Below are positions 249 to 31,532 of a DNA stretch of 31,532 nucleotides, piece by piece. Origin of the DNA: a virus (lineage: Duplodnaviria > Caudoviricetes); IMG/VR virus record IMGVR_UViG_3300034171_000077, positions 1-31,532 of that record; one strand, given 5' to 3'. Within the stretch, counting starts at the first letter, position 1; each line of letters starts with the position of its first letter. The notes below the pieces were generated by a model. It was not told the origin of the DNA. It did no database searches and worked only from the letters and a program-made list of their open reading frames with translations. The position numbers and the translations under genes are program-made.

Positions 249-258
249 TGTGTTACTC

Positions 259-1922: not shown

Positions 1923-1933
1923 CTAACCCTCCG

Positions 1934-2377
1934 TTATGCGGCGTTCAGCCACACGTAGTCGAATTGCCGTTCCAGCACAGCACCATCGCCGCGACGGATA
2001 ACCACCCGCAGCCCCAAAGTGTTGCGGCGCAGATGCCAGGCCTCCACTTCTACCGCTTCGGCTACCGCGTCTTCAATCAGCCAGGCCAGAGCTTCCTCGG
2101 CATATTCCCGCGCGCGGCGTAACACTTCGGCCTGTTCTTTTTCCCGGCTCAAAAGCCACAGCCGGGAACCGTGGGGGCGGTCGCGGTAAGCGTCTGCCCA
2201 GTAACCGCGCCGATCACTGCTGCCGTCTGGCAGGCGATCTTCTTCCAAGGCGCGGCGATCGGTAAACAGCGACAGAATCACCGCCGTTTGAAGGCTTTCG
2301 TCACGCGCAAGATCGCCATCTTCCAGGGCCAGATCAAAGCGCTTGTCGCCTGCATCGTATTTCAGTGCGAAGTCCAT
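1934..2377 (-). CDS. Baseplate protein, Mu gp46 family
   Basis: LQTAVILSLFTDRRA, RGYWAD, GSRLWLL, YAEEALAWL motifs. Confidence 0.92.
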   Translation of the reverse strand: MDFALKYDAGDKRFDLALEDGDLARDESLQTAVILSLFTDRRALEEDRLPDGSSDRRGYWADAYRDRPHGSRLWLLSREKEQAEVLRRAREYAEEALAWLIEDAVAEAVEVEAWHLRRNTLGLRVVIRRGDGAVLERQFDYVWLNAA

Positions 2378-2997
2378 TAGCTCATGCCTTGGTTCGGCGG
2401 ATTTGTCGGGCCGCCGTTGTCGTTCTCGACATGGTTGTGCCCGTTATAGGTGTCGCGCATGCCCTGTATCGTGCCCCTCGGATCGGCCACCGACGTGGCA
2501 GAAGACAAGGCGCCCGCGAACTCACCTGTGCCGTTCACGACCAGGTTGCCGTTGATGGTTACGTTGCCGTCGTGAGTCGTGGTGGCCGTGATGTGGCAAG
2601 TCGGCGCGGTCACCTCCAGGTGCTGAACCGCCTGCACCTGGATCTTGTCGCGCTTGAACACAATCACGTTGCCCAGGTCGTCGTACATGGCCACCTCGCC
2701 TTGGGCCAACTGTTTCAGCCGGTACCGGCGGTCGTCGATGGCCAGCGCGACCAGGTGCGCCCGGGCACCGCCCACGGCGGCCACAACCGCTTCGGCGCCT
2801 GGGTGCGGGTGGCTGGTGTAGCCGTATTCCTGAAAGCGCTCAGCCCACGCGGGCTCACCGCCCAGCAGTGACACTTGTACCCGCTGCAGCTTCAGGCTGT
2901 CGTCTACCAAATTCAGCACGCCGCGTGAGACCAGCAGGCGGATGCGCCGCCACACGGGTCCCATCAGCCGCTGCCATGTACGTCTTTGATCTACCAT
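2377..2997 (-). CDS. Baseplate spike protein, Mu gp45 / gpV-like
   Basis: ERFQEYGYTSHP, DDRRYR, GEVAMYD, C-terminal HxH metal-binding tip (YNGHNH). Start placed at ATG 2997, which overlaps the gp44 stop (TAATG). Confidence 0.9.
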   Translation of the reverse strand: MVDQRRTWQRLMGPVWRRIRLLVSRGVLNLVDDSLKLQRVQVSLLGGEPAWAERFQEYGYTSHPHPGAEAVVAAVGGARAHLVALAIDDRRYRLKQLAQGEVAMYDDLGNVIVFKRDKIQVQAVQHLEVTAPTCHITATTTHDGNVTINGNLVVNGTGEFAGALSSATSVADPRGTIQGMRDTYNGHNHVENDNGGPTNPPNQGMS

Positions 2998-4067
2998 TAC
3001 CACCCCCATCCGGCCGGAGTACCGCTACCACCGTCCGTTTTGGACTCAGGTTCCGGCACCGGCACAGGCTCGAAAGCCGCCGGCGGCGCCACGCGCAGTT
3101 CAGCCGTGCGCCCCTGATCGCTCTCAATAAGTTGAACGTCACTGATCAGCAGCTGCTCGTCCAGCCCCAGATAGGCATCGCGCACATGAACCAGGTCACC
3201 CGGTCGCCACACGCCTTGCTCGTGGCGCCACGTGCCCACGGTGTAGGTCACGCCCCGGCCCCTGGCCCAGCGCATCCGCGCTTCCAGTTCTGCCCGGGCT
3301 TTGCAGTCGGCGGCGTCGGCGGGGGTATCGCACACAATTAAGGTGGTTCGCGGCGCACGAATGCGGGGGTCGTTCACCTGGGCCGTTGGGCCTGCGGCAT
3401 CCTCTCCGCTCCAGCTGTCTGAACCTGGCGTTTGGCCGTGAACGATGTAGCTGTTAAACCGATCGATGTTACTGAACACGCCAGAACCCTTGCGAATATT
3501 GCCGCCCAGCTCCAAAGGCGTGCTGACCTCGCGCTGCACCGCGTGCACGATCACCAGGTGGCCCTGGGCGTCGCTTACAATGCGCGCACCGCGGATCTGG
3601 GCCGCGCGCTCGATGGCCTCGGCGATTGGTTGGCCATCTTCCAGGGCGAACTCGCGGAAGGGCTTGCTTGCGCCCACGGTATCAATCACGTCTATGCCGT
3701 AGGGCGCAGCCAGGGCGGTGGCGATCTGCACCAGGGTTTGGCCATCAAAACGCTGGTCTTTGCCGCTGCAATCAATCAGGTCTGCGGCCTTACTGCGGCC
3801 ACTGGCCGCGATGGTGTGGCTGGTCGCGTCGTAATCTGGCAGCACTTCGTCCAGGTAGCCGGTTACGAGCAGCTCATCCCCAACGTGCACAGTGCAGGCC
3901 TCGCCAGGGGTTACCGGGCGCACCATGCCAGAATCGCCCCAGCGCTCGGTGAGCGTTAGATCAAAGCTGTCTGCGATCATTTCCAGGCTCAGGCGAATGC
4001 GCACTTCCTGCCAGCCCTGGTGGCGCTGGCTGCCAATTTGCAGCACGACGGGCTCTTGGTTATTCAC
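2997..4067 (-). CDS. Baseplate hub protein, Mu gp44 (P)
   Basis: GWQEVRI, VTGYLD, GRSKAADLIDCS, WRPGDLV motifs; synteny. Confidence 0.9.
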   Translation of the reverse strand: MNNQEPVVLQIGSQRHQGWQEVRIRLSLEMIADSFDLTLTERWGDSGMVRPVTPGEACTVHVGDELLVTGYLDEVLPDYDATSHTIAASGRSKAADLIDCSGKDQRFDGQTLVQIATALAAPYGIDVIDTVGASKPFREFALEDGQPIAEAIERAAQIRGARIVSDAQGHLVIVHAVQREVSTPLELGGNIRKGSGVFSNIDRFNSYIVHGQTPGSDSWSGEDAAGPTAQVNDPRIRAPRTTLIVCDTPADAADCKARAELEARMRWARGRGVTYTVGTWRHEQGVWRPGDLVHVRDAYLGLDEQLLISDVQLIESDQGRTAELRVAPPAAFEPVPVPEPESKTDGGSGTPAGWGW

Positions 4068-5310
4068 TCAACACCTCCAGATCCATTCCACCGCGCAACG
4101 CACCTGGGTGCGCCGCGTTGTTGCGTATAACAATTTCGTCCGCACGGGTCGCGTCGCCATACAGGCGGTGCGCCACTACCAGTGCCGGCAGCGTCCGCTG
4201 CGGTGTGTAGATGGTCAGGGCTGGCAAGGCCACCGCGCGCGTGCGCAAATCGTTAGAAACCTTGGCGCGCAGATTTACTAACGCGGCATAAACCGCATCG
4301 GTAATGGCGGAATCTGCCATCATCTGTGCGTCAATCAGTGCCAGGGTGCTGTCGCCAGCCGCCAGGGCATCTTGCCGACTCATCCAGTCGGTGTCTGCCA
4401 CCACGCGGGCGGCGGTCAGGGTGGCGGCGCGGCCATTCAGCTGGCGCGCCGCGATGGTGTTCTGCACTCGCTGCCGGCGCTCTGGCGTGTCTGCAATGGG
4501 CGGGGTTACGCTGTTGCTGCTATTGCCAATTTCAAGCAACAGCCTTGCGGCCCTGGTCGGCGTGCCCGGGGTTAGCAGCACACGACCGCCGCCGTCGGAA
4601 TTGCTCTTGCCCAGGATGGTGCCGCCGCTATAAAGGTCCAGGGCTTTGATCGGGCGCAGCACTGCGTTGCGCAGCCGGTTAAAGCCACCCAGCACAATGC
4701 CCGCGATATTCACTGGGAAGCGGATCACGCTGGCCACCTCATCAGCAATGCCGCCCACCACGTCTTCAGCCGCCCGGATGGCCGATGCCAAATCGCGCTC
4801 CACTGCCACCAGCGACCAGCCCAGCAAACCCTCTACGCGCCACTTATCGGCAAAGTCTTCGGTCAGCGCTTCTTCAAAAACGTCTGCGGCTTTTTGCACG
4901 TCACGCTGGGTGTCTACCGTGGTGACCGGATAGGCTTCCACGCCCGCTTCGGAGAAGGTCACCTGGAATGTGCAAACGCCACCGGTGCGCGTGCTTTCGC
5001 TCCAGCGCACATTGCTGGCCACGGCGGTGACACTGCCCAGGTATGGGTGCACCAACGTGGCTGCGCCTGGCGCGTCGAACGCCCGGATCAGCTCGTTGCG
5101 CTGGCGATCGTAGTCGTCACCCGCCACGAACAACTGCAACCGCCACTCGCGCGCCTTACGCCCCATATCTTCGGCGTGGGGCCGGTCGCGGCGCGGGTAT
5201 TCGTGAATCAGCCAGCGGCGGCCACCGGTGGTATCGGCGCTGTCCACATGGAAGCGCACGTTGCGGTAGGAGCCCGCCAGTTCCGGGTCGATTCGATCAC
5301 GCCAGCTCAT
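4060..5310 (-). CDS. DNA circularisation protein, Mu gp43 (N)
   Basis: MSWRD..GSYRNVRF, HEYPRRD...EDMG, LVHPYLG and C-terminal PALVVAHRLYGDATRADEIV.RN...HP. Confidence 0.92.
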   Translation of the reverse strand: MSWRDRIDPELAGSYRNVRFHVDSADTTGGRRWLIHEYPRRDRPHAEDMGRKAREWRLQLFVAGDDYDRQRNELIRAFDAPGAATLVHPYLGSVTAVASNVRWSESTRTGGVCTFQVTFSEAGVEAYPVTTVDTQRDVQKAADVFEEALTEDFADKWRVEGLLGWSLVAVERDLASAIRAAEDVVGGIADEVASVIRFPVNIAGIVLGGFNRLRNAVLRPIKALDLYSGGTILGKSNSDGGGRVLLTPGTPTRAARLLLEIGNSSNSVTPPIADTPERRQRVQNTIAARQLNGRAATLTAARVVADTDWMSRQDALAAGDSTLALIDAQMMADSAITDAVYAALVNLRAKVSNDLRTRAVALPALTIYTPQRTLPALVVAHRLYGDATRADEIVIRNNAAHPGALRGGMDLEVLSE

Positions 5311-5353
5311 GTGCTAAGCTCCTGTGAGTCCATAAATCAGAAGGAGAAAACCT

Positions 5354-6100
5354 GTGTCTAATATTTTCCTTATAGTGCTGCTGCTTTCGCTGATCGCACT
5401 TGTAGTAGGGGTCATCAATCCACGCTGGGCGATGCCCTGGGCATCGAACCCTAGTCGAGGCAAGGCAGCCGGCCTCTACTTCGCTTTGATACTGGTGGCG
5501 CTTATCGGCGTCGGCGCTACCACGGATACAACCGAGCAAACGGCGACTGCGGCTAAACCAGCTGAACAGCAATCGGATGGCCAAGTGGTCGAGCAGGAAC
5601 CAGAGCCGGCCGCAAAACCCGAACCACTCTCTCCGGTCAAACTTGTCGCTACGCGCATGCCAGCCGGACAAAAAAGCTTTCTGGCGGTTATAGCAGAGGC
5701 CGCCAATGCGTACGAAGATGCGCCCAATGAACTCGTCAAATCCAGTATCGATAAAGCGCGTCGTGTCGACTCCAGAGAGTTCACCTCGAACGGCCAGCTG
5801 AAGGGCTGGGTCGGGATATTGGAGCGCCTGGGAACAAACGGCGACGGCAATGGAATAATCGTGATCCGAGCTAATCCAAAGACGACCTTTCAAACTTGGA
5901 ACAACGCCTTTTCGGACATCAACGATAAAACTCTCATTCCGAATGGGTCGGAGCTTTATAACGCAGTCGCGCAGCTTGCAGAGGGCACACCCGTGATCTT
6001 TTCGGGCCGCCTCCTCGGTGAAGGCAGCACAACTGAGGAAGGATCCGTAATGGAACCCGAGTTCATCGTTCGCTTTAGCAGTATTGAACCGTTGCATTAA
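5354..6100 (+). CDS. Membrane-anchored hypothetical protein (moron), opposite strand to the tail operon
   Basis: AAGGAG RBS then GTG. Two hydrophobic N-terminal segments, a T/A/P/E/Q-rich linker and a globular C-terminal domain. Confidence 0.8.
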   Translation: MSNIFLIVLLLSLIALVVGVINPRWAMPWASNPSRGKAAGLYFALILVALIGVGATTDTTEQTATAAKPAEQQSDGQVVEQEPEPAAKPEPLSPVKLVATRMPAGQKSFLAVIAEAANAYEDAPNELVKSSIDKARRVDSREFTSNGQLKGWVGILERLGTNGDGNGIIVIRANPKTTFQTWNNAFSDINDKTLIPNGSELYNAVAQLAEGTPVIFSGRLLGEGSTTEEGSVMEPEFIVRFSSIEPLH

Positions 6101-7917
6101 GGCGCCACCCCCAGCACTCCCGATTCCACCTGGAAGTCCATAACTCCACTGCGGTGCGCCTCAGTAACCCGGGGGCGCCCCTCAGAATCCACCACTATGC
6201 GCAACTCACCGCCCACGTCGGCTCGCGCTGGCCTGGGCATGGCAGATGGCCGGCCCTGGGTTACCGAGGCGCCACCGGCTTGCGGTGCTGCCATGCCACC
6301 CAAACCAAGCTTGTCTTTGGCCCAGTCCGGCATCCAGCCGGCCAAATCTTCCATTTTCGTTGATAGCCAGCCCGTTAGCTGATCCCAGCGCTCACTGATA
6401 CCGCTCCACAAACCGCCGATCCACTCACCACCAACTTCAGTGAGAGGGCGCGCGCCGAACATCTCAAACACCGCGTCGATGCCTTGAAGCAAAAGCGCCG
6501 CCGGGCTGAATGAAAGAAGGTCTTTGGTGATATCGCCGATGCCCTGGCTGAAAAACGCCTTAACGCCGCCCCACATGTCACCAAACCATTGAGCGATGCC
6601 ATCCCAGTTCTTGTAAATGAGATAGGCCGCCCCAGCAATAGCGGCCACCGCAGCCAAAATCCAGCCCACGGGCGTGGTGAGAATGGCCAAACCAAGCGCG
6701 CGGATACCCGCGACGGCCGCCGGTATCGCTCGGGAAGCCAGGCCAATCAGCCCCGTGCCCATGCGCGCACTCATTACTGCCGCAAGCATTGAAGCCCGGC
6801 CAAACGCAACCAACCGCCGGCCGCCGCTTAGCAGCCCTCGCCCCATCATCAACAGGGCTCTAACGGCGACTTTACCCGCCGTTAGAGCGAACACGCCCAT
6901 CTGGAAAATGGACACCAGCAAGGCTGCCAAAAACTTACCGGCCATCAAGCCGGCCACTAGGCCAAGCAAGTTACCGTAACCGCCGACGCGCTCGGCCGCC
7001 CAGGACACGGCAGCGCCGATCATTTTGAAGCCCTGCCAGATGTCCCGAATGCCGCTTACAATGTCGCTGGCGACCGCTTGCCGGTTGGCTTGCCCCAGCG
7101 CGCCCATACGCTCAATCCAGCCGTTAATAGCGGGTAGCAGTTCACCCACCACCGTGGTTTGAATACTGAAAAACATCTCGCGCAAGTCGCCCATCTGGCG
7201 AGTGTAGATACGGGAGTTATCAATCTGTTCTTCGCTGATAATGACGCCCCTGTCGCGCCCGGCTTGCACCAAAGCCTCCAGCTCTTCACGGCTGGCCTTG
7301 AGCATTTCCACCATTTGCTCGCCGCCGGCACCGCCAAAGATTTCATCCATTACACGCTGGCGTGCGGCGTCGTTCTCTAGCCCGCCCAGGCGCGACCGTA
7401 CCAGGTCAAACATGGCCGCCGCGTCGCCGCCCGTTTTGCGCAGTTCTTCAACGCCGATGCCCAACCGGTTAAAGGCCTCGGCCGCAGGGCCGCCGGCGGT
7501 CATCACAAACTCGTCCGCACGCAGGCTCAGTTCTTTGATGCCGTCGGCCAGCGCGTCGTTGCCAACGCCAAACTGTTTGCCCACGTACTGCCATTCCTGC
7601 AACCAGGTGGTGCCCACGCCCAAGCGCTCGCTGGTGGTTTTTACTTCGTTTCCAAGGTTGGTCACAGCGGACACCAGGCGCTCCGTACCCCATACCGCAC
7701 CAGCGGCGACACCTCCCATCACCAGCATACGCTGGCCCAGGTTACGGGCGTGCCCCATGACCGAACCCATGGCGGCACCCACCCGGCGAGCGGAAGCCGC
7801 CAGACGATCCAGCCCAGCCCGACGGGCCAGGCCCGACAGCGACTGCTGGATGCGCCGAACCGGGCGTGTTACCCGATCTACCAGCTGCATCACTATGCTG
7901 GTAACCATGTTAGACAT
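6097..7917 (-). CDS. Tail tape measure protein (Mu gp42)
   Basis: 606 aa, Ala/Gly-rich, hydrophobic central segments, IYKNWDGI-type aromatic periodicity; follows the tail chaperones. Confidence 0.92.
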   Translation of the reverse strand: MSNMVTSIVMQLVDRVTRPVRRIQQSLSGLARRAGLDRLAASARRVGAAMGSVMGHARNLGQRMLVMGGVAAGAVWGTERLVSAVTNLGNEVKTTSERLGVGTTWLQEWQYVGKQFGVGNDALADGIKELSLRADEFVMTAGGPAAEAFNRLGIGVEELRKTGGDAAAMFDLVRSRLGGLENDAARQRVMDEIFGGAGGEQMVEMLKASREELEALVQAGRDRGVIISEEQIDNSRIYTRQMGDLREMFFSIQTTVVGELLPAINGWIERMGALGQANRQAVASDIVSGIRDIWQGFKMIGAAVSWAAERVGGYGNLLGLVAGLMAGKFLAALLVSIFQMGVFALTAGKVAVRALLMMGRGLLSGGRRLVAFGRASMLAAVMSARMGTGLIGLASRAIPAAVAGIRALGLAILTTPVGWILAAVAAIAGAAYLIYKNWDGIAQWFGDMWGGVKAFFSQGIGDITKDLLSFSPAALLLQGIDAVFEMFGARPLTEVGGEWIGGLWSGISERWDQLTGWLSTKMEDLAGWMPDWAKDKLGLGGMAAPQAGGASVTQGRPSAMPRPARADVGGELRIVVDSEGRPRVTEAHRSGVMDFQVESGVLGVAP

Positions 7918-8074
7918 CGCGTTTCATCTCCTCGGCCAGTTGCTCCGCCTGGTGGTACCACCACATCAGGTCATCCATATCCATTTCCAGTAGTGCCGCC
8001 GGGTTAAAGCCGGTGAACGCCACTGCCACGGTGCGTATCAGCGCATCCCAGTCCCGTGGAGCTTCGGCAAAAAA
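7910..8074 (-). CDS. Tail assembly chaperone frameshift extension (P2 gpE'-like), reached by -1 slip
   Basis: The -1 frame from T TTT TTG reads FAEAPRDWDALIRTVAVAFTGFNPAALLEMDMDDLMWWYHQAEQLAEEMKRDV*; the stop overlaps the tape-measure start region. Confidence 0.8.
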   Translation of the reverse strand, partial: FFAEAPRDWDALIRTVAVAFTGFNPAALLEMDMDDLMWWYHQAEQLAEEMKRDV

Positions 8075-8406
8075 GGCTCAATCGCCTGCATCGCCAGATC
8101 CACGTCGCGCCCGTCAAGCTCATCCGCCGCTTGCACGGGAATGCGCGCCAAGGCCGCAATCAGCGCCAGGGTTTTGCTCATCTCGCCCTGCACTTTGTCC
8201 ATCGCTTTCAAGTGCTTGCCTTTTACACAACGGGGCAGCGTGAGCGTGTCCACGGTGCGCTCGCCGTCCAGCTTGCTGGCTTTGAATGTGACCGGCTGCG
8301 CCAGATGCACAATCACCGAATCTGAGGTGTGCTCAATACGCCCCACCTTTTCAGCCGTCGAGCTGTCCACTTGCTGTTCCAGCTCTGCGTCTTGGTGCTT
8401 TTCCAT
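8038..8406 (-). CDS. Tail assembly chaperone (Mu gp41 / P2 gpE-like)
   Basis: Between tube and tape measure; DELDGRD motif; ends in a slippery site. Confidence 0.85.
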   Translation of the reverse strand: MEKHQDAELEQQVDSSTAEKVGRIEHTSDSVIVHLAQPVTFKASKLDGERTVDTLTLPRCVKGKHLKAMDKVQGEMSKTLALIAALARIPVQAADELDGRDVDLAMQAIEPFLPKLHGTGMR

Positions 8407-8409
8407 CGC

Positions 8410-8766
8410 TTAAACCCTCTCGCAGGTGCGGGCGGCCATGTTCAGACGAATCTGGCCCTCACCGCTGTTCAGTTCGGCTGTCTCGGTCACAAAGGCACCG
8501 GTCAGCATGTAGTCTTGCCCGTTGTCGCACTCGAACAGCACAGTGGCACCGCGGATCTTGCCGATCTCGATGATGTCCAGCTCTTCGGTGTGCAGCACGG
8601 TGGCCTGCAGTGTTGGCGCCACCGGCTCCTCGTTGTAGTACACGCGGTTGCCGGCCATTTTGGTGGCGCGGTTGACGCCACCGGGATTGAGGGTGGCGCC
8701 GCGTTCGGTCGGGTATTCCTGGCCATCCACACGGATGGTGGCAAGCCCTGTGATTCGTCCGCTCAT
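8410..8766 (-). CDS. Tail tube protein (Mu gpM)
   Basis: ITGLATIRVDG..LNPGG..FECDNGQDY; 118 aa, directly after the sheath. Confidence 0.9.
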   Translation of the reverse strand: MSGRITGLATIRVDGQEYPTERGATLNPGGVNRATKMAGNRVYYNEEPVAPTLQATVLHTEELDIIEIGKIRGATVLFECDNGQDYMLTGAFVTETAELNSGEGQIRLNMAARTCERV

Positions 8767-8809
8767 GGGTGTTTACACTCCTGTTAACGGGTGGTTATTC
8801 GCCGCTGAA

Positions 8810-10297
8810 TCAGCGGCGGAATTGTGTTTGCTGCGCGTGTACGCGGTACTGGCCAATCAGCATCGGCTGATCCATCACGTTCAGGCGGCCGGGGTCAGAC
8901 GGGTCAATGTTCGCCCGCAGGCTTTCGGTGTAGCCGGCGTAGTCGCGCACCCAGCCGTAAGCACCCATCAGCGTTAGACGGTAGAGATTCAGCAGCTCGG
9001 TGCGCGCCACTTTGGGCGTCATAATGGGCTGGCTGGGATCGTAGAATTCACGGTCTTCGTCGGCGGCCAGCTTGTGGCGCGGGTACTTCTGCGCGAACAG
9101 GCTGATCTGCTCAAATCGGATGCGTTCCAGGGTTTCGGGCGTGTTGATATCCAGGTAGCTGTCGTCGGCGATGCCGCTGGCGTTTTCCTGGTAGGTGGTG
9201 ATCTGGCGCTCAATCTGCACGCTGCCGTCGCTGGCCACGGTGTAAGTGGCCACGCCGTCAAACAGCAGGAGGTTGCGCTCGGGATCAGACCAGCGCTGGC
9301 CCTCGGCGGGCGGAATCAGGCCAGGCAAGGCCAACCGCTGCAACGGCCGGGCTGGGTCAATCGCCAGTGATTTGGCGGCCACAATGGCGTTGGTGGCGGC
9401 CCACAGCCACGTTGGGCTGGCCGCCAAACCTGTGCCCATCATGCTGACGTGCGGCGAGTTGCGGCCGTTACCGGCGGTGGCCACCTCGGCGTGGGTGCCA
9501 CGGAAGGCACAGAACGCACGCCCGCCAATCTGGCGCATAGGGCCGTAGCGATCGGACAGCTCGGCTTCCATCGCTTCCAGGCTGGTGGTGTCGGTGTAGG
9601 GCAGGCAAACCCAGTTAAACCACTCGCTACCCATGGCGGCAATAGCGGCATCCAGCTGTGGGTTCACAGCACCGCCACTTGCCTGGGTGTAACTTACGCG
9701 CAAGCCTTTGGGGCGCTGTTCACCTTTCACGCTGTCGCGCAGGTCAATGTCGTTACCGGTTTCGCCTTTCCAGCGGCAGGTCAGCACCACCTTGCTCGGG
9801 GTTATGCCATCCACGGCCGCGGTCACCGGCACGCGGTCGTCAGCGTTCACCGCATCGACAATGGCCTGGGCCACTATTTGGGGCTGATCGCCAGCAGCCA
9901 GGGATACCCACACGCGCCGGCCGGCAATGTACAGCGCCAGCGGACGGGTGTCGGACGGCCCTTCAGTCACTTCCAGGGAACACGTGGCCACCACGCCCGC
10001 CGCCGCATCGTCCAGGGCAATGACCCAGGTTTCGGTGTACAGATCCACTTCTTTGATGGCGCGCATCATTTCGGCGAGCATGGAGCCACGGCCAAACAGT
10101 TCGTCGCCTTGTTCTTTACTGGTCACACGTACCAGGCTGCCGGCATCCTGGGAGCCGCCAATCCGCTTCTGGCCAATCACCAGCAGCTTGCCCATGAACA
10201 CCGCGTTACCGGCCAGGCGGTTATCAAATTCGACGTACCAGCCCGGCACACGGAGTGATGCGGGAATGTCGTTAAATACGGTTGCGCTGATAGCCAT
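8810..10297 (-). CDS. Tail sheath protein (Mu gpL)
   Basis: FNDIP..LRVPG.YVEFDN, LFGRGSMLA.M, DPARPLQ, ERNLLLFDG, SYLDINT, KYPRHKLA. Confidence 0.95.
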   Translation of the reverse strand: MAISATVFNDIPASLRVPGWYVEFDNRLAGNAVFMGKLLVIGQKRIGGSQDAGSLVRVTSKEQGDELFGRGSMLAEMMRAIKEVDLYTETWVIALDDAAAGVVATCSLEVTEGPSDTRPLALYIAGRRVWVSLAAGDQPQIVAQAIVDAVNADDRVPVTAAVDGITPSKVVLTCRWKGETGNDIDLRDSVKGEQRPKGLRVSYTQASGGAVNPQLDAAIAAMGSEWFNWVCLPYTDTTSLEAMEAELSDRYGPMRQIGGRAFCAFRGTHAEVATAGNGRNSPHVSMMGTGLAASPTWLWAATNAIVAAKSLAIDPARPLQRLALPGLIPPAEGQRWSDPERNLLLFDGVATYTVASDGSVQIERQITTYQENASGIADDSYLDINTPETLERIRFEQISLFAQKYPRHKLAADEDREFYDPSQPIMTPKVARTELLNLYRLTLMGAYGWVRDYAGYTESLRANIDPSDPGRLNVMDQPMLIGQYRVHAQQTQFRR

Positions 10298-10509
10298 CAG
10301 TCAGCCTCCTTTTGCTTGAGTGCCGCACCGTTAGGCTTGGCCTTGGGTGTCGCGGCCGGGGTGGCTTCGACGATGGAACCCTCTGCCTTGCGGCGTATCC
10401 AGTGGCCGCTCCAGTCAACCCAGGCGCCCTCTTGGGGCAGCGGTTGGCCGTTTTGCGGCTGGCGCACCACCAGGCCCTGGCGGGCCGGTTTGATGTATCG
10501 CTTGGTCAC
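10297..10509 (-). CDS. Mu gp38 / DUF2635 family protein
   Basis: IKPA..GL.VR.P....LP.EG..V.....W.RR...G pattern upstream of the sheath. Confidence 0.85.
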   Translation of the reverse strand: MTKRYIKPARQGLVVRQPQNGQPLPQEGAWVDWSGHWIRRKAEGSIVEATPAATPKAKPNGAALKQKEAD

Positions 10510-10520
10510 GGTTGTGTCTC

Positions 10521-11063
10521 CTAGGTGGCCGTGGGAATTTCGGTGTAGCTCTCGGTGGCGGGGCCATCGCCCACCTGGTGAGTTGCGCTGTAGATGGCAA
10601 AATCAGCCAGTTCGGACGGGTCAGACGCCCGCAGAGCCAGCCCTTGCTGCCAGCTCACCGCCCAAAGCGCGACGCCCTGGCGGTCGGCCTGACCGCTGTA
10701 CAGGTTTTCAGCCGCCACGTTTTCCGGGCGTTGAGTGTTGTCCAGGCCCCAGCGGTTGCCTTTCACACAGCGCAGCAGCGCCTCGGTGTAATCCAGGGCC
10801 GCCACATCTCGTGTCGCTCCCGGCGTATCGCGGGTAACCACATAGGCCACCCAGCGCACCTGCACATGGCGCGTTTGATTGTCTGCAACCACCGGCACCT
10901 GCACAGCCGACACCAGCACCGCCGGCGCGCGACGGCTCCAGCGCTGCAGCTCCTGCAAATCAAAGCGGCCGCCATGGGCCTGGCAGTCTTTCAGGGCGGG
11001 CAGCGCCACCTGTATGGACTGAACAATGGCGTTGCGTGTCAGGTTGAGGTCTCCGGTGTTCAT
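10521..11063 (-). CDS. Tail terminator-like protein (Mu gp37)
   Basis: HGGRFD, PAVLV, NLYS..G.ALWAVSW; position. Confidence 0.78.
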   Translation of the reverse strand: MNTGDLNLTRNAIVQSIQVALPALKDCQAHGGRFDLQELQRWSRRAPAVLVSAVQVPVVADNQTRHVQVRWVAYVVTRDTPGATRDVAALDYTEALLRCVKGNRWGLDNTQRPENVAAENLYSGQADRQGVALWAVSWQQGLALRASDPSELADFAIYSATHQVGDGPATESYTEIPTAT

Positions 11064-11521
11064 CGTTGCTCCAGGTGCTGGTCAAGCCAGCGGCCGGCTA
11101 CGACCTGAAGCTCGGCCAGGTTGTCGCTGGATAAGCCCAGGTACGGGCGCGCCGGAATAGCCGCGGGGCCCGGCGCCATGCCTGCCACACCGCCTTCCTG
11201 GTGAATGCGGGCGTAAACCAGATTGGAGCCTATCTCCACCCGGTCGCCCTGCACGTCGAAGGTAATGCTGTCCAGCAGGTCGCCTTCGCCTTGCAGCAGT
11301 GATTGGCCGCCGTGGCGGGCGCCGGCGTAGTCGGCCGTCCATGCTGTCCAGGGGGTACCATCGGGCGCTTCCTGCTCGTCGCTGATCCGGAGCCGTGTCT
11401 GGCTTTCGGCCACGCTGCCCAGCTGCTCGCCTAACTCGCTTAACTGGAGGTTGCTCAAGCGCCCAATGCGCTCTTGCAAGCGGCGGACTCCTGAGAAGTC
11501 GGTGGTCAGCGAAACGCTCAC
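11060..11521 (-). CDS. Virion morphogenesis protein (Mu gpG / P2 gpS family)
   Basis: PDGTPW, G.L..SI, GSNLVYARIHQEGG, IPARPYLGLS. GTG start at 11521 overlaps the gp36 stop (GTGA). Confidence 0.88.
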   Translation of the reverse strand: MSVSLTTDFSGVRRLQERIGRLSNLQLSELGEQLGSVAESQTRLRISDEQEAPDGTPWTAWTADYAGARHGGQSLLQGEGDLLDSITFDVQGDRVEIGSNLVYARIHQEGGVAGMAPGPAAIPARPYLGLSSDNLAELQVVAGRWLDQHLEQR

Positions 11522-11934
11522 GTTAGCCTCCGGTCGCGGCCCCAACGGCGCGGTTTTGAGAACACGGCCGGCTTGATGCTGGTGGGCGTGCCTTGCTGAA
11601 TGCCCAAGCTAACCTCGCCCTTGGCGATGGCTTTCAGCAGTTGTATCGCTTTCTCGCAGCGGGTTTTCCGGTGTTCGGTGCCGGTATCGGCTTCGGGCGA
11701 CAGCGTGTCGAAAGCAATGTCCACGGCCAGCTTGGTCAGAATGCGCGGCACCGTGTTCAGGGGTAGCTTGTATTGCTGGCCCACGTAGGTGTCGATCTCG
11801 GCATCCGCATCGGCTAGGGCTTGCTCCACCACATCGGCGTCTACCTGGCCATCACCGTCACGGTCGGCGGCAATCAGCAGTGCGTCATTGCCAAAGCGAT
11901 CAATCAGGTTTTGCAGCGTGGCGTAAACAGCCAT
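11518..11934 (-). CDS. Head-tail connector, Mu gp36 (DUF1320)
   Basis: YAT..LI.RFG, ALADADAEID.Y...Y.LPL..VP, AI..L..IAKG..SLG. Confidence 0.9.
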   Translation of the reverse strand: MAVYATLQNLIDRFGNDALLIAADRDGDGQVDADVVEQALADADAEIDTYVGQQYKLPLNTVPRILTKLAVDIAFDTLSPEADTGTEHRKTRCEKAIQLLKAIAKGEVSLGIQQGTPTSIKPAVFSKPRRWGRDRRLT

Positions 11935-11935
11935 A

Positions 11936-12220
11936 TCAGCTCTCCTCGGTACCGGTTGAGGTGACGGCCCGCACGGTCAGCCGGCTCTCAGATTCGATGG
12001 CCTTCCGCTGCTCATGCGTTAGATCGCACACATCTATAACGGTTTCTGCGCGGCTAAACTGCAAGCCGGCGCGGCGGAAGCTGGGGGGAATGGATCGCAC
12101 GGCAATACGCTCGTGGCCCTGAGCGCTGCCCGGTGCGGCCGTGTTGTCCGCGGCGGTCTGGTCAGCGGCCTTGGCAGCCGGCTTGGTGATTTTTGCTTTG
12201 CTGGTTCTGGTGGCGGCCAT
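11936..12220 (-). CDS. Mu gp35 / HI1506-like small virion protein
   Basis: FRRAGLQF..LT.EQ..AI..E.RL.V motif after the capsid gene. Confidence 0.75.
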   Translation of the reverse strand: MAATRTSKAKITKPAAKAADQTAADNTAAPGSAQGHERIAVRSIPPSFRRAGLQFSRAETVIDVCDLTHEQRKAIESESRLTVRAVTSTGTEES

Positions 12221-12246
12221 GCGCCCTCCGTGTGCTTGTCGGTTTC

Positions 12247-12279
12247 AAAAATGGCCAGACCCAGGGCCCGGCCATTTTT
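12247..12279 (-). terminator. Intrinsic terminator after the major capsid gene (possibly bidirectional)
   Basis: Minus strand AAAAATGGCCGGGCC-CTG-GGTCTGGCCATTTTT; GC stem with A and T tracts on the two sides. Confidence 0.75.
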
Positions 12280-12311
12280 AGACTGCCTGTTTTAGAGTGC
12301 CTGCGTAGCGG

Positions 12312-13232
12312 TTAGCCCTGGCCGGTAGACCCGAACGCCATCTGCCAGAAGCTGAACCCAGCCGCGCCGCGAGCTTCCGCGCCGTAGAGGTACTTCTTCT
12401 GCAAGAACACGGCGTCGCTGTCCATGTTGGTCTGGGAGACGAACACAGGCGCCTTGCGTTCTTGATAGATGAACGGCTTTACCGGCTTGGTGGTGTCCAG
12501 CAGAAACCACGCGGTGTCGGACGTCAGGCGGGATGACACCACCACTTTCGCGGCGTTCCGGTAAGGGTTGGGCTTGCCGTCTTCCAACCGCTCAACGCTC
12601 ATCAGTGCTTCTGCGGTGTCTTCCAGGGCGGGTGGTACCAGCAGGATGTCGGGTTTGATGTTGAGCGGGCGCTCTTCGTCATCCTTCATCTTGCGCAACG
12701 CCGTACGAGCCGCACCAAAGCTGGCCTGAGCGGCCGCCAACGTGGCATGGCTCAGCGCAACCGTGCCCTTGTTAGAGGCACTGCCAGTGCTGCCATCCTT
12801 CTTGCCCACCGGGTGATCGGTATCGAAGAACGGCTGGCCGTCATAACCCAGTTCGACAAAACCCGCGTTCACCAGGTCAAACACCAGTTCGTCCGGCAGG
12901 TGCGCGGCGCTGTAGCCTGCCATCTCGGCTTCGGGGCCATAGATGCCCAGGGTGTCGTCTTCAATGTCGTTGCGATCCACTTCAACAGTGGCTTCGAAGT
13001 CGTCGTTGATGACGGTGTAGCCCTGGCCCTTCATCTGCTTAACCACCTTATCCCCTACCCACTTGCGCATGGCCGGGAAACGCTCCATCCACTTGTAGCG
13101 GTTTTCGGAAGAGGTTGAGGTCACCTTCATGGCGATCTTTGGCCACTCAGGCTCCGCGGCCTGCAGGGCGCGGTTGTATGTGGTCTTCAGGTTGAAGAAC
13201 ACGCCGTCTAATGCACCTTTATTTACAATCAC
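12312..13232 (-). CDS. Major capsid protein (Mu gpT)
   Basis: FP.MRKWVGD, FEATVEVDRNDIEDD.LG.Y, YDGQPFFDTDH, WFLLDTTKPVKPFIYQER, FWQMA. Confidence 0.96.
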   Translation of the reverse strand: MIVNKGALDGVFFNLKTTYNRALQAAEPEWPKIAMKVTSTSSENRYKWMERFPAMRKWVGDKVVKQMKGQGYTVINDDFEATVEVDRNDIEDDTLGIYGPEAEMAGYSAAHLPDELVFDLVNAGFVELGYDGQPFFDTDHPVGKKDGSTGSASNKGTVALSHATLAAAQASFGAARTALRKMKDDEERPLNIKPDILLVPPALEDTAEALMSVERLEDGKPNPYRNAAKVVVSSRLTSDTAWFLLDTTKPVKPFIYQERKAPVFVSQTNMDSDAVFLQKKYLYGAEARGAAGFSFWQMAFGSTGQG

Positions 13233-22081: not shown

Positions 22082-22105
22082 AAAGAAACAGGCGACAAAG
22101 CCGCC
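22082..22105 (-). terminator. Probable intrinsic terminator ending the early operon
   Basis: Minus strand GGCGGC-TTT-GTCGCC followed by TGTTTCTTT, 3 nt after the Mor-family stop. Confidence 0.5.
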
Positions 22106-22108
22106 GCA

Positions 22109-22504
22109 TTACGACTCGTTGAACAGATCCACCTGGCGCTCATCCGGCGTTGTGTCGGCGAGTATTTCCCACACCCGCCGCTCGGTCAGGTTGTAACACA
22201 GCGCAAGGCGACGAACGGAAATACCCATGTTGTGCTCCTCTCGCATCTGGCGGTTACGAAACGCTTTAGTGGCTGAGCTGGCGTTAGGTACGTCAAATCG
22301 TTCCAGGGCGTAGTGCTTCGAAAGCGCACGGGCCGCCTCAACTCCAAGCAACTCTACTAAAGCGTGTGTGTTTGGCATTTTCAGGGGCACCGTTAACCGG
22401 GTGCCGCCGTAGGCGCCTACCAGGCTTTTGGTGGCCTCCAGGCCGATCACATCGATCAGCTCTTTGAGCGAGGCAGGCAAGTAGTCTGTATCCCAGTTCG
22501 CCAT
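22109..22504 (-). CDS. Mor/C-family late transcription activator
   Basis: LP.SL.ELIDVIG....L...YGG..L.VP, RN..., LA..YNLTERRVWEIL; start placed at ATG 22504. Confidence 0.88.
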   Translation of the reverse strand: MANWDTDYLPASLKELIDVIGLEATKSLVGAYGGTRLTVPLKMPNTHALVELLGVEAARALSKHYALERFDVPNASSATKAFRNRQMREEHNMGISVRRLALCYNLTERRVWEILADTTPDERQVDLFNES

Positions 22505-22509
22505 CGTTA

Positions 22510-23022
22510 TCAGTCTCCGGCTGTGCGTTTTGTGGCGTATTTGCTGGTATCCACGCCCAGCTTCTCCATGTGCGCTTTCCACTTTCGGTTGGCTTCTTCC
22601 GGGGTTTCGTCTATGCCCTGTTTTTTAATCCAGCTGGTGGGGCGAGCCTCGGCTTCGGCAGAGGGTTTGTTGGCCGCTGGCGCCACGGTGGTCAGCACTT
22701 GCTTCAAGTAATTGTGATTTTTCAGCGGGTGGTTTTCGCCCCGCTGGCGCTTTTCGTGCAGTGTGCGCACGGTGTCTTGCAGGCCAGCAATCAGGCTGTC
22801 GCGGTCGGCAATGGCCAGGGTTTCCTGCGCCAGTTTCAGTGCGCGGGCGTTGCTTAGGTCGCTTTTCGCCGGGCGGAACAGGCCCAGGTATTGCACCAGT
22901 GGCCGGGCCAGTGGGCGACCCAGACCAGCCAGCAGGCCCAGCAGTTCGCTGCCGGCGTCGTCTTGTATCAGTGCTTCCAGCTGTATGTGGCTGTGGCACA
23001 CGGGGCAGCGGCCTAACTTCAT
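22510..23022 (-). CDS. Conserved Mu-like hypothetical protein with N-terminal CxxC
   Basis: MKLGRCPVCH, YLGLFRP.KS.L, PLKNHNYL. ATG overlaps the gemA stop (ATGA). Confidence 0.75.
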   Translation of the reverse strand: MKLGRCPVCHSHIQLEALIQDDAGSELLGLLAGLGRPLARPLVQYLGLFRPAKSDLSNARALKLAQETLAIADRDSLIAGLQDTVRTLHEKRQRGENHPLKNHNYLKQVLTTVAPAANKPSAEAEARPTSWIKKQGIDETPEEANRKWKAHMEKLGVDTSKYATKRTAGD

Positions 23023-23618
23023 GCCTGCTCCCCTTTGCGGTGTTCTGCCAGCCACTCATCCACGCTCATGTAGTGGCTGCACAGGGTTATTAATACTTTG
23101 CGGTTGCGGCGCCAGTTTTTGGGCAGGCTTATATTCCTTTTTTCCACATCATCCAGCGTTAGAGATTGCTCGGCCATAGCCTTCTCTAACGACTTCAGCA
23201 ACCGGCGCTTTTCCAGTTCCACGTCCAGGGCCGCAATTAAGCCGGTGAATTGCTCTACGCTCTTCAGCCAGGCCACACGCTCAACCTTGTATTGGCGCTT
23301 GGCGATGGCGTCGGCGTAGCTCCAGGGCGCTTTCAGTTCGGCCAACAGAGCCTCCACTTTTTGCAGCATGGGCTTGCTGTCCAGGTTGTGGGGCTTGCCT
23401 GGGTACTGGGCTACGCGCTTGCGGGCACGGGCCTTGAAGCCGTGGTCTTTCAGGCGCTGCACCACCTGGTAAAGCTCTGGCACGGTGCAATCCGCGCAGG
23501 AGCGCTTGCCGCCTGTTACCGTGGCAATCATCTGGCGGTAGGTGTCGTCATCCAGCGCCAGCTCTTTGCGGGCAATGTGGATCTGGGCGGTTACGCCGCG
23601 GCGGTTGTTGGGTTTCAT
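23019..23618 (-). CDS. gemA: GemA / Mu gp16 (DUF1018) protein
   Basis: IHIARKEL.LDDDTYR, GKRSC, GF, KVEALL....PW.YA. Confidence 0.88.
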   Translation of the reverse strand: MKPNNRRGVTAQIHIARKELALDDDTYRQMIATVTGGKRSCADCTVPELYQVVQRLKDHGFKARARKRVAQYPGKPHNLDSKPMLQKVEALLAELKAPWSYADAIAKRQYKVERVAWLKSVEQFTGLIAALDVELEKRRLLKSLEKAMAEQSLTLDDVEKRNISLPKNWRRNRKVLITLCSHYMSVDEWLAEHRKGEQA

Positions 23619-24028
23619 GCCTCGGCCGCCTCCGCTTCACGCTTGATTTCCAGATCTGGGAAGTGCTTTTTTAGGTGGGTAACGGCGGCAGACTCGGTGC
23701 CAAAATCCGGCACAAACGCAATCACTCTGGGCGTTACCATCCGGTCAGCGTGTGCCTTGCCAAAAATTCGCTTGAGCTTCGGATAGTCCTTTTTTTTGTA
23801 TAGGGCAGACTTCGCCGGTCGCCAAAAGCGGGCCTCGGGATGCACTGGCTTTTGATCTTCGACGGTGGTCCATTCGCCCTTTAAGTAGCCATCCACATAA
23901 ACGACCACATAGATCTTCTTGCCGTTGTTTACCTTGCGCAGCGACAGCTTGTAGCCGTCGGCTAGCAGCGTGATGCTGCCGCCCAGGTGCTTCAGGGCGT
24001 CTTTAATTTCTTGCCATTTATTCATCAT
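23615..24028 (-). CDS. Hypothetical early protein
   Basis: Coupled ORF in the early operon; basic; start probably ATG 24028 or 24025. Confidence 0.7.
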   Translation of the reverse strand: MMNKWQEIKDALKHLGGSITLLADGYKLSLRKVNNGKKIYVVVYVDGYLKGEWTTVEDQKPVHPEARFWRPAKSALYKKKDYPKLKRIFGKAHADRMVTPRVIAFVPDFGTESAAVTHLKKHFPDLEIKREAEAAEA

Positions 24029-24197
24029 CTGCCTTCTCCTCTGTTGGCGCTTCTTCGTAAGCAATCACTACTGCAACATCGTGATAGCTCGCCGCGACAA
24101 TCCCGCCGCTCATCATTGAAAACCCCAGCAGCCAGGCGAGAGCCACCAAGCCGAGCAAGCCGAATGCGTCTTCTGCTACCTTCTTCAATATTTTCAT
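24018..24197 (-). CDS. 59-aa membrane protein directly downstream of the hammerhead ribozyme
   Basis: GGAG RBS at 24203-24206; MKILKKVAEDAFGLLGLVALAWLLGFSMMSGG..., one TM segment and an acidic tail. Confidence 0.65.
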   Translation of the reverse strand: MKILKKVAEDAFGLLGLVALAWLLGFSMMSGGIVAASYHDVAVVIAYEEAPTEEKADDE

Positions 24198-24207
24198 TAA
24201 TTCTCCA

Positions 24208-24266
24208 GGTTGCTCATCAGTACCAGGCAACCACGCCTGGCAGACGCCCCAGCTGGGGCGTTTCGC
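24208..24266 (-). ncRNA. Type II hammerhead ribozyme with loop I pseudoknot
   Basis: GC-GAAA-CGCCCC-AGCU-GGGGCG-UC^-UGCCAGGC-GUGGUU-GCCUGGUA-CUGAUGA-GC-AACC. All core nucleotides are present, stems I, II and III pair, and GGUU/AACC can form a pseudoknot. Confidence 0.9.
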
Positions 24267-24512
24267 TTAGTCGATTAGGATGTCGCCGCCGGGTCGGTGC
24301 AGGATTTCTTCCCCTGTCACATCAAAGCTTTCACGCATGGTGGCGCGCATGACCTCGACGGCTTTCAGTGCAAGGCACTGCACAACGGTCGTCTTTTTGC
24401 CCATGGCCTGGCCGTGAAAATCTAAGCAGATCAACATTTCTCCTTCGGCCGTTGCTTCGACAGTCACCGTGGCTTTGGTGCCAATTTCTTGCGCTACGCT
24501 GGCATCAGTCAT
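24267..24512 (-). CDS. Hypothetical early protein (81 aa)
   Basis: Overlaps the end of the HU gene; its stop abuts the ribozyme. Confidence 0.65.
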   Translation of the reverse strand: MTDASVAQEIGTKATVTVEATAEGEMLICLDFHGQAMGKKTTVVQCLALKAVEVMRATMRESFDVTGEEILHRPGGDILID

Positions 24513-24804
24513 GGCTCACCGCATCCTTCAGGGCCTTGGCAGCCTTGAACTTGGGGACCTTGGTTGCCGGCAGCTCAATGGCTTTACCGGTTTGCGGGTT
24601 GCGGCCCGTGCGGGCGGCGCGCTCGGCTACGATGAGCTTTCCAACACCGGGCAAGGTGACTTCGCCGCCCTGGGCCAGCTGCTCGTGAACAATGTCGGTC
24701 AGGCTGTCCACAACGGCGGTCATGTTGTCCTTGCTAATCGCGTAGTTCTCGCGCTTGGCGTGGTGTTTGGCAATCAGGGCGTCAATCAGTTGTGCTTTAT
24801 TCAC
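24505..24804 (-). CDS. HU/IHF-family DNA-bending protein
   Basis: GAGGA RBS and GTG; MNKAQLIDAL...V.LPGVGKL....RAARTGRNPQTGKAIELPATKVPKFKAAKALKDAV. Confidence 0.93.
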   Translation of the reverse strand: MNKAQLIDALIAKHHAKRENYAISKDNMTAVVDSLTDIVHEQLAQGGEVTLPGVGKLIVAERAARTGRNPQTGKAIELPATKVPKFKAAKALKDAVSHD

Positions 24805-24839
24805 GGGCAAATCCTCTTTGGTTTCGGGGTTTGGGTGGG

Positions 24840-25472
24840 TTAAAGGGCCGCTACGTCGAGCGGGATCTGGCGGTATGGGCCGTCTTCGCCCTGCCGTTCG
24901 TAAAAGCGCAAATAGCTTTTGGAGCCGGTCACCTGAATGGAGTCCATGATGGCTTGCATGGCGTTCTGCCACTTTTCGCTTTTAATGTTCAGGCTGCGCA
25001 GGCCCAGCACGCGGGCGGTGCTGATCTTGCCTTCCTTGTCGGTCTGGAATGCGTGCTCTACCAGGGCCTGCACTTCGCTGCTGCTGCCGGCGGTCCATTC
25101 GTGGATGCAGTGATCAATCAGTTCCTTGGCCACCTGCAGGCGTTCGTCGAACGCCAGGCTGTCAGCGATCGCGCGCTTGATCTGGTACTTGCCGTCGAAA
25201 CTGGACAGGGTGACGTTGCCCTTTTTACCGCCGTAGCGGGTGTCGTACTCACGGGCGCTCAGCTCCAGAAAGGCTTCCACTTCGCTGGAGATGTCGGCTT
25301 TCACGATGCGCATGAGCTTCTGCAATTCCTTCACTTTGGTAACAACGTCACTTACCAGCTCATCACGCAGGCGGTCTATGTCTTTCACTTGCGCCAGCGG
25401 CACCAGGTGCCCTTTGGCGTTTCGGCGGAATTGGTCGGTGTTTTCTGCGGTGTTCATAAGGCTATATCTCAC
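24840..25472 (-). CDS. DUF3164-family protein
   Basis: NAKGHLVP...K.ID.LRD, GGKKGNVTL.SFDG, FDERLQ.AK.LID.C, K.Y.RFYER. Start is GTG 25472 or ATG 25457. Confidence 0.85.
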   Translation of the reverse strand: MRYSLMNTAENTDQFRRNAKGHLVPLAQVKDIDRLRDELVSDVVTKVKELQKLMRIVKADISSEVEAFLELSAREYDTRYGGKKGNVTLSSFDGKYQIKRAIADSLAFDERLQVAKELIDHCIHEWTAGSSSEVQALVEHAFQTDKEGKISTARVLGLRSLNIKSEKWQNAMQAIMDSIQVTGSKSYLRFYERQGEDGPYRQIPLDVAAL

Positions 25473-30489: not shown

Positions 30490-30518
30490 AACATAACTTG
30501 ATAAAGTTAGGCTAGCAA
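30490..30518 (-). promoter_or_regulatory. Early promoter (sigma70): TTGCTA-17-TATGTT with palindrome TAACTT-N4-AAGTTA (30494-30509) over the spacer
   Basis: Near-consensus hexamers at 17-bp spacing upstream of ner in AT-rich divergent DNA. Confidence 0.6.
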
Positions 30519-30604
30519 CCCCTAAAAGGTTATTTCCATGTTCTTTCCGGTTAAATAGTTAGTCGTAAAGAGTTTAATTATTCGAAATCATGGAGTTACG
30601 AAAC

Positions 30605-31312
30605 ATGGAAGAAGGCAAGAAAAAAACATCCGCACTTCCAGGCTCAGCCCCCGAAGATGGAAGAGACTTAGAGTTCATTGGAAGACTAAAGGTTCTTGTA
30701 GCAGGAACTGGTAGCGCTAATGCGCTGGCTAAGGCGGCAGGGATTTCACAAAGCGGTATACAGCGTTATTTGAATGGCGGTGAGCCTAGTCGAAAAGCGT
30801 TAATCGCTATCGCGTTAGCGGGAGGAGTATCTGTCGGCTGGCTGGCCACTGGTCACGGCGAACCAGAAGACCCGGTGACGGCCAGTGCACCAGAGTTAGA
30901 AGACTACGCATTTGTTCCTCTCTACGACGCTCAGTGCAGCGCAGGGGACGGCAGCTGGAACGAGGATTCACGCGTGCTCACCAAACTAAGCTTTACGCGG
31001 TACAGCCTCAGGAAGCAGGGCCTGACGCCTGACCGCCTTTCAGCGATCCGTATAGATGGTGACTCTATGGAGCCCGTGCTGCACAGCGGCGACACGGTTC
31101 TGATTGATCACACCAGAATAACGATTGAGGGCGAGGGTATATATGTACTGCGGCTGGACGGGCATCTCTACGCCAAGCGCCTACAGCGGAATTTTGATGG
31201 CGTGGTGGTCATCAGCGCCAATAAAGAATACGCACCAATTACCATTCCTAACAATCGGCTCGATGAACTGGAGATAGTGGGGCGCGCGGTGTGGTCTGCG
31301 GGGTGGCTGTGA
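30605..31312 (+). CDS. CI/LexA-like repressor: HTH plus S24 peptidase domain
   Basis: LAKAAGISQSGIQRYLNG HTH, WLATG, SAG cleavage site, GDSMEP (Ser), AKRL (Lys). GGAG before ATG 30605 (alternative start 30590). Confidence 0.93.
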   Translation: MEEGKKKTSALPGSAPEDGRDLEFIGRLKVLVAGTGSANALAKAAGISQSGIQRYLNGGEPSRKALIAIALAGGVSVGWLATGHGEPEDPVTASAPELEDYAFVPLYDAQCSAGDGSWNEDSRVLTKLSFTRYSLRKQGLTPDRLSAIRIDGDSMEPVLHSGDTVLIDHTRITIEGEGIYVLRLDGHLYAKRLQRNFDGVVVISANKEYAPITIPNNRLDELEIVGRAVWSAGWL

Positions 31313-31337
31313 GCCATCCAGGCTACCCGGGCGGCGG

Positions 31338-31531
31338 TGCCAAATGTAGCGCCTAAATTAAACATTCGTGCAATTTTCGTGATTTTCTACAGTTGCACTA
31401 TATTTGGCATCTTTGCTGCGGTGTCATTTCTGGCAATCCCCCTGTTTTCGCGGCGCTCAGCCCAGATTGAACCATTTCTTCCCATTTCTTCCCGTCTTTC
31501 TTTTCTATGCCATATCTAATGCTAGTTCACA
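31338..31531. repeat. Phage left end: four ~15-bp repeats (consensus TGCCAWATNTARYGC) and terminal ...ACA
   Basis: TGCCAAATGTAGCGC (31338 +), TGCCAAATATAGTGC (31395-31409 -), degenerate TGTCATTTCTGGCAA (31422 +), TGCCATATCTAATGC (31508 +), then TAGTTCACA. Confidence 0.7.
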
Positions 31532-31532
31532 C

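Follow-up and report, generated by a model that had tools for sequence, protein, structure and literature searches.

An intact type II hammerhead ribozyme under selection sits in a fixed slot of the early operon, between Gam/DUF3164 and gemA, in the Mu-like phage described here and in many of its relatives. The window, that is, the whole stretch of 31,532 nucleotides analysed, is a single 31.5-kb contig of this phage. On balance, and with restrained confidence, we favour a reading in which the ribozyme would constitutively cut the early mRNA and thereby uncouple the life of the gemA-Mor/C message from that of the transposition and accessory genes.

A type II hammerhead ribozyme in the early operon

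In the window, the repressor is encoded on the plus strand. The minus strand carries, in this order, ner, transposase A, B, DUF3164, HU, orf81, the ribozyme, orf59, orf149, gemA, orf144 and Mor/C, followed by a terminator-like hairpin and then by lysis and head genes. Our annotation confirms the gene order of a preliminary description of this DNA: ner, A, B, DUF3164 and HU lie upstream of the ribozyme, and gemA with a single Mor/C gene lies downstream; one Mor/C-family gene was found among the 29 ORFs scanned. The features of the region are as follows.

24840–25472, minus: DUF3164 gene (Pfam PF11363), upstream landmark of the slot
24505–24972, minus: HU-like DNA-binding protein (PF00216, residues 57–152)
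24267–24512, minus: orf81, no Pfam or PHROG match, 41–45% homologues in relatives
24269–24267, minus: TAA stop codon of orf81, 2 nt before GAAA
24268–24204, minus: type II hammerhead ribozyme (match to Rfam RF02276, Hammerhead_II)
24266–24265, minus: 5' strand of stem II, GC (sequence)
24264–24261, minus: GAAA core strand (sequence)
24261–24255 with 24250–24244 (span 24244–24261), minus: stem III hairpin, 7 bp including an A-U pair (sequence and folding)
24245–24243, minus: GUC triplet (sequence)
24243/24242, minus: predicted cleavage site, 3' of C17 in GUC (hammerhead consensus)
24242–24235 with 24228–24221 (span 24221–24242), minus: stem I hairpin, 8 bp with one G-U (folding and covariation)
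24234–24229, minus: stem I loop GUGGUU (sequence)
24220–24214, minus: CUGAUGA catalytic core strand (sequence and Rfam match)
24213–24212, minus: 3' strand of stem II, GC (sequence)
24211–24208, minus: AACC tail, pseudoknot partner of loop GGUU at 24232–24229 (sequence)
24206–24203, minus: Shine-Dalgarno-like GGAG of orf59 (sequence)
24018–24197, minus: orf59 (ATG 24197–24195), first gene beyond the cut, no family match
23019–23618, minus: gemA (PF06252)
22109–22582, minus: Mor/C-family late activator (PF08765, phrog_836)
22091–22107, minus: terminator-like hairpin 3' of Mor/C (consensus scan)

The true start of the HU gene is probably near 24810, and partial homologues of orf59 occur in loci L148 and L155. 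The tight packing of the genes suggests that the early operon is co-transcribed across the ribozyme, and the terminator-like hairpin after Mor/C likely marks its end; the scan that located it, based on consensus only, returned 19 candidates against 14.6 expected in the region. At 22107–22046 on the minus strand, this hairpin precedes the sole promoter-like site of the scan, which lies in front of the endolysin gene; the stretch is likely the early/late boundary. The promoter scan returned this one site against 3.8 expected and is too weak to bear on internal promoters. A further terminator-like hairpin lies inside orf59 (24150–24124, minus), about 50 nt past its start, and is within chance expectation. 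Since the closest GemA relatives among named genomes come from Marinobacter (71–77%) and the sole RNA run containing the phage stems from brine, a Marinobacter-like host is likely.

By its sequence, the window element is a canonical type II hammerhead ribozyme. The Infernal check against Rfam that the preliminary description had recommended, run over the whole window, matched Hammerhead_II with 69.4 bits (E 1.1e-12), well over the gathering score of 37, and the alignment covers model positions 1–66 of 66. It is the sole Rfam match across the window at E of 1 or below. Our own covariance model R1, which has the window copy in its training set, scores it at 81.3 bits. The core CUGANGA, the GAAA and the NUH triplet are all present in type II order, and each sequence element that had been described was recovered at its position on the minus strand. 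Folding and covariation show loops closing stems I and III and an open stem II, and four Watson-Crick pairs are possible between loop I and the 3' tail. With the full-length match and every core base in place, the type II topology with pseudoknot that had been claimed stands, and the cut predicted at 24243/24242 agrees in position with the hammerhead consensus, 3' of GUC. The ribozyme folds with a z-score of -2.36 against shuffles. Pair probabilities for stems I and III were at least 0.97 in three contexts of 76–361 nt, with junction pairs at 0.77–0.83; the 2-bp stem II reached 0–0.23 in three contexts with ViennaRNA, whose model does not include the pseudoknot.

Covariation in homologous loci, on which the preliminary description had staked its assignment, was found. 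Across 32 homologues, a set of close relatives and hand-picked pattern matches chosen partly for folding, 92.8% of cells are paired and 16/21 pairs show two-sided changes, a level of covariation reached by 0/500 shuffles; among 17 close relatives, two-sided changes occur in three pairs. Three of the pseudoknot pairs are kept in 24–28 of the 32 homologues and the fourth in 9. The core is intact in 89/89 tabulated matches, a table that omits two copies, one in which the core is changed and one in which it carries an insertion. These compensatory changes, together with the invariant core, argue for selection on the RNA fold. Some variants were seen as well: one of two tandem hammerheads (L250:4676) has an altered core base and may be inactive, and copies with extra bases at the 5' GAAA/stem III junction occur at L131:4944–5016, L175:3939 and L275:3939, the L131 variant still being over the Rfam cut-off with 46.7 bits.

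The RNA data consist of assembled contigs from one brine run (X1), and contigs do not report ends, strand or level. They cover 23798–24223 and 24270–24942, and none bridges the cut site. As gaps of this size or larger are found at other places (about 23272–23558 and 24943–25174) and the contigs are silent on ends, we discarded this coverage gap as evidence of cleavage. One X1 contig matches the window up to 30495 and continues with 255 unrelated bases (window region 30495–31532), which suggests that the immunity region of the X1 strain differs.

Position of the ribozyme in related gemA loci

We took the best 80 gemA loci each from GTDB (of 305) and IMG/VR (of 439) and searched them with the covariance model built here, merging identical gemA starts; presence was counted in the 126 loci for which 3 kb or more upstream of gemA was available. 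These loci are related to one another and were picked for their similarity to the GemA of the window, so the counts should not be read as independent events; all of them come from the covariance model, since a pattern search had failed to detect the L131 ribozyme recovered by Rfam. The preliminary description had suggested examining conservation and position in related Mu-like phages, and the survey revealed a fixed Gam/DUF3164-to-gemA slot: a hammerhead lies upstream of gemA in 64/126 loci and is absent from 62/126, with two or more copies in 14/126. The 109 model matches all lie on the sense (gene) strand. Of 93 matches in distinct loci, 88 are located 71–2620 nt upstream of gemA and five downstream. 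Each of the 80 upstream matches with a mapped Gam or DUF3164 lies 3' of that gene, and each of the 71 with a mapped B lies in the distal half of the B-to-gemA interval, which has a median length of 3687 nt without and 3790 nt with the ribozyme.

The ribozyme also abuts the preceding gene. Counting open frames of at least 45 codons, a stop codon was found no more than 12 nt ahead of the ribozyme in 88/90 distinct ribozymes (control 6.6%) and exactly 2 nt before GAAA in 45/90 (control 0.8%). This exact spacing spans 12 protein clusters and both TAA and TGA, and the proteins flanking the 90 ribozymes form 28 clusters on the upstream side and 24 on the downstream side. Close relatives show the exact spacing in 19 of the 21 instances listed, some of which are near-identical. 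Among them, every locus with a DUF3164 of at least 67% identity and with sequence past the slot carries the ribozyme, and HU, orf81 and the genes between ribozyme and gemA are variably present. In the upstream flanks L165–L322, a His codon directly precedes the stop in 29/45 exact-spacing cases, which suggests genes grafted onto a common junction. When the 90-ribozyme list was inspected by eye, the 5' flank and loop I showed no covariation that would point to pairing between them.

A pattern scan of 3 of the 64 IMG/VR parts, done without preselection, gave 58 distinct folding matches from 143 pattern matches, with the same packing of stop, ribozyme and ribosome-binding site (RBS) and a looser stop spacing of 2 to about 13 nt. 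The ribozyme had been reported to fill its intergenic gap exactly; this is correct for the 69-nt gap in the window, but the equal packing in the unselected sample marks it as the norm for phage members of the family.

For the hammerhead-free loci, we considered two kinds of stand-in and rejected both. No other Rfam ribozyme class was present in the 24 of 62 such loci scanned, nor in the further hammerhead-free loci scanned with Rfam, and plain hairpins of at least 9 bp in the slot showed a weak excess (24/52 versus 15/52 in a control stretch). Several other elements were noted in the survey. The hammerhead-free Mu-like contig L317 carries a CRISPR-like array without Rfam match in the DUF3164-to-gemA slot (5580–5912; six copies of a 28-nt repeat with 33-nt spacers). 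Cutting by host Cas6-type enzymes would yield end chemistry similar to that of ribozyme cleavage; alternatively, the array may be a phage mini-array. L190:4933–5180, also in this slot and from a prophage without a hammerhead, consists of tandemly repeated hairpins of two alternating kinds. A common long imperfect hairpin, with the DUF3164/Gam stop directly 5' and an RBS 3', occurs in L210:5568, L214:5554 (no Rfam match) and L315:5321, all of them hammerhead-free. At L281:5841, a hairpin resembling stem III of the D3112-type hammerhead, without model match, is possibly a decayed copy, and L241:3578–3661 in a hammerhead-free Mu-like prophage matches a C4 antisense RNA. Two or three hammerheads are found in L295, L302 and L283, some of them 3' of Mor/C so that the activator is bracketed, and the phage contigs L054/L055 and L078 hold four or five pattern matches within about 3 kb.

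Among named phages, the ribozyme occupies the slot in D3112 (9439–9510), B23, DMS3 and RcapMu; no hammerhead was found in Mu (bases 1–12500), phiE255, BcepMu or Fc02 (bases 1–10000). The D3112 copy matches 222 phage records, including 119 Pseudomonas phages, with at least 95% identity in 104/222, and the window copy matches 170 records. The literature searched, which leaves most subscription journals outside its coverage, contained no paper on a hammerhead in D3112 or a ribozyme in DMS3.

Consequences of the predicted cut

In the reading we favour, the early polycistronic mRNA would be cut at 24243/24242 soon after its synthesis into one message with the transposition genes and another with orf59, gemA and Mor/C, and the 2-bp stem II would let the products part. 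The upstream RNA would keep its last stop codon and end in stem III with a 2',3'-cyclic phosphate; the downstream RNA would begin with a 5'-OH and stem I, its RBS lying about 36 nt in. When both product ends were folded, stem III formed at the end of the upstream RNA and stem I at the start of the downstream RNA. In hosts with RNase E, the downstream message would be shielded from 5'-end-assisted decay, perhaps modestly. The benefit would lie in processing and in an insulating boundary, with the gemA-activator message decaying apart from upstream RNA and from swapped-in genes, and the ribozyme would be an optional tuning device rather than a phase switch. We infer the cleavage, the co-transcription and the stability effect; a split of the early transcript in two is the likely outcome predicted from these data.

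Published work is consistent with such processing. Tandem phage hammerheads cut polycistrons of about 2 kb in vitro, one set also in E. coli (PMC3088659), and three type II copies near phage-like genes were cut in vivo in Desulfovibrio (PMC8782182). RNase E is assisted by a 5'-monophosphate, a route that a 5' stem-loop blocks in ompA mRNA, and E. coli is seemingly inefficient at phosphorylating hammerhead-made 5'-OH ends (PMC4191395, the latter from unpublished data cited there). The argument for protection by a 5'-OH end made in the preliminary description is weakened by direct entry of RNase E, a major 5'-independent route (PMC4191395), owing to which the stabilisation may be small. The 62/126 relatives without the ribozyme weigh against the favoured reading. 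Moreover, the multi-copy loci and the five matches downstream of gemA imply that the target may be single accessory genes and not the activator.

Mu itself has a separate gem promoter. The Mu Pm/gem operon and the present locus both concern expression around gemA and Mor/C; they differ in that Mu encodes two activators and, in the bases scanned, lacks a hammerhead. The Mu gene mor is the direct neighbour of gemA, and C lies roughly 0.8 kb beyond. The ribozyme had been proposed to be an RNA-level timer that replaces the middle promoter Pm of Mu. Such a kinetic timer would greatly stabilise the gemA-Mor/C mRNA, so that the activator outlasts the shut-off of the early promoter and sets lysis timing, and we regard it as doubtful. 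It is favoured by the strict placement between Gam/DUF3164 and gemA and by the distribution among named phages, the two-activator Mu lacking the ribozyme and the one-activator D3112, DMS3, B23 and RcapMu (regions read) carrying it. Early transcripts of Fc02 also dwindle distally (PMC9936078), so distal genes may need help. However, Mu was the sole clear two-activator genome, and a weaker association with activator number may exist. The Mor/C profile, which detects both Mu proteins, found one Mor/C gene in 94/95 loci with at least 4 kb downstream; 48/94 of these single-activator loci have the ribozyme, but 46/94 are without a type II hammerhead, as are phiE255, BcepMu and Fc02. A Pm substitute should be present wherever the Mor-to-C cascade is absent, and in these 46 loci it is missing. 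As no Rfam ribozyme of another class was found in the 24 of 62 hammerhead-free loci scanned either, a phage without Pm needs no known ribozyme. The site differs, too: Pm is a Mor-dependent promoter (PMC4390567) and mor is reported to close the left operon (PMC9936078). Since Pm needs Mor, it cannot drive mor at the ribozyme slot; Pm acts after mor expression and the ribozyme stands ahead of gemA, and hence the ribozyme is not at Pm's place. A replacement of the middle promoter is therefore not supported. Nor is there a sign of gating, as the RBS opening energy differs by less than 1 kcal/mol between cut and uncut RNA (three contexts) and folding, a method that does not extend to gating by proteins or ribosomes, revealed no competing fold or extra gating domain. 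A folding switch in which cleavage gates orf59 translation was rejected on the same energy difference. An ungated hammerhead would cut constitutively and thus change levels and half-lives without phase switching.

The variable genes on both sides of the ribozyme, which differ even between close relatives, suggest another role. The conserved 65-nt element could mainly act as a joint at which accessory genes recombine in and out, each with its own stop and RBS, with cleavage retained so that each cassette forms its own expression unit. In keeping with this, tandem copies bracket single genes in the multi-copy loci (HU lies between two copies in L138), and a junction of His codon and stop recurs in the 29/45 exact-spacing cases and in 5 of 12 unrelated protein clusters. 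We nevertheless consider it unlikely, as the compensatory changes and the invariant core reflect a selection on the RNA fold that DNA homology alone would not need, and the B-to-gemA interval is similar in length without the ribozyme.

The exact 2-nt stop spacing across 12 clusters and both stop codons raises the question of a link to translation. A terminating ribosome covers roughly the next 7–9 nt and might melt the ribozyme; alternatively, a cut past the stop codon might remove Rho-loading RNA and relieve polarity. This adjacency is explained equally by genome compaction and shared ancestry, and the spacing is looser in the unselected phage sample. With cleavage at about one per minute (PMC3088659), slow against elongation, either mechanism appears quite improbable. 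It is very improbable that the element is a relic, whether neutral or inactive, or that it yields a small RNA from its own promoter, unrelated to the operon: half of the relatives lack it, a few copies are degenerate (L250, L175) and Desulfovibrio reads mostly cover the ribozyme motif alone (PMC8782182), but the strong covariation, the intact cores, the strict strand and slot and the high identity among records matching the D3112 copy speak against it.

Relation to known hammerheads and implications

The ribozyme family, its link to Mu-like genes and the idea of polycistron processing are already published; the fixed slot and the presence in tractable phages are the additions made here. Perreault 2011 (PMC3088659) described type II hammerheads with pseudoknot in prophage settings and proposed polycistron processing. 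The accessible part of this paper does not mention the Gam/DUF3164-to-gemA slot, and its main text has no occurrence of "stop codon". The window ribozyme shares with RF02276 the permutation, the core, the 2-bp stem II, the pseudoknot and the intergenic prophage setting, and differs in its AACC tail (consensus AGCC, a U-A pair for U-G), being otherwise structurally alike. Hammerhead and twister ribozymes have their strongest association with Mu-like phage genes, for a reason stated to be unknown (PMC10085705, citing Roth 2014 and Weinberg 2015); compared with this enrichment, the position inside the early operon is resolved here. The gene tables of Roth 2014 and Weinberg 2015 may list gemA, Mor or DUF3164 and thus anticipate the slot. 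Processing with differential stability has been hypothesised for phage hammerheads (PMC6765202). The hammerheads of Desulfovibrio vulgaris belong to the same family, lie near phage-like genes and were seen to cleave in vivo by end-specific sequencing, but they come from another host, and the accessible part of that report gives no function and no effect on flanking mRNA (PMC8782182). The variable early region and gemA have been covered in PMC4378225, PMC8705779 and PMC12407980; the main text of PMC4378225 does not contain the word "ribozyme".

Taken by itself, the element is ordinary. What self-cleaving ribozymes do in phages has been described as unknown (PMC6765202, PMC10085705), and our survey narrows their setting to one slot, filled in about half of the Mu-like loci covered. 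The carriers D3112, DMS3, RcapMu and B23 are cultured and genetically workable. A wider proposal is that, in Mu-like phages of many Proteobacteria, cleavage in place of a promoter would yield a separate hairpin-capped gemA-Mor/C message, the stability of which sets the level of the late activator and thereby the timing of lysis; we put it forward tentatively, as possible but on the unlikely side. If true, it would give phage hammerheads a biological role.
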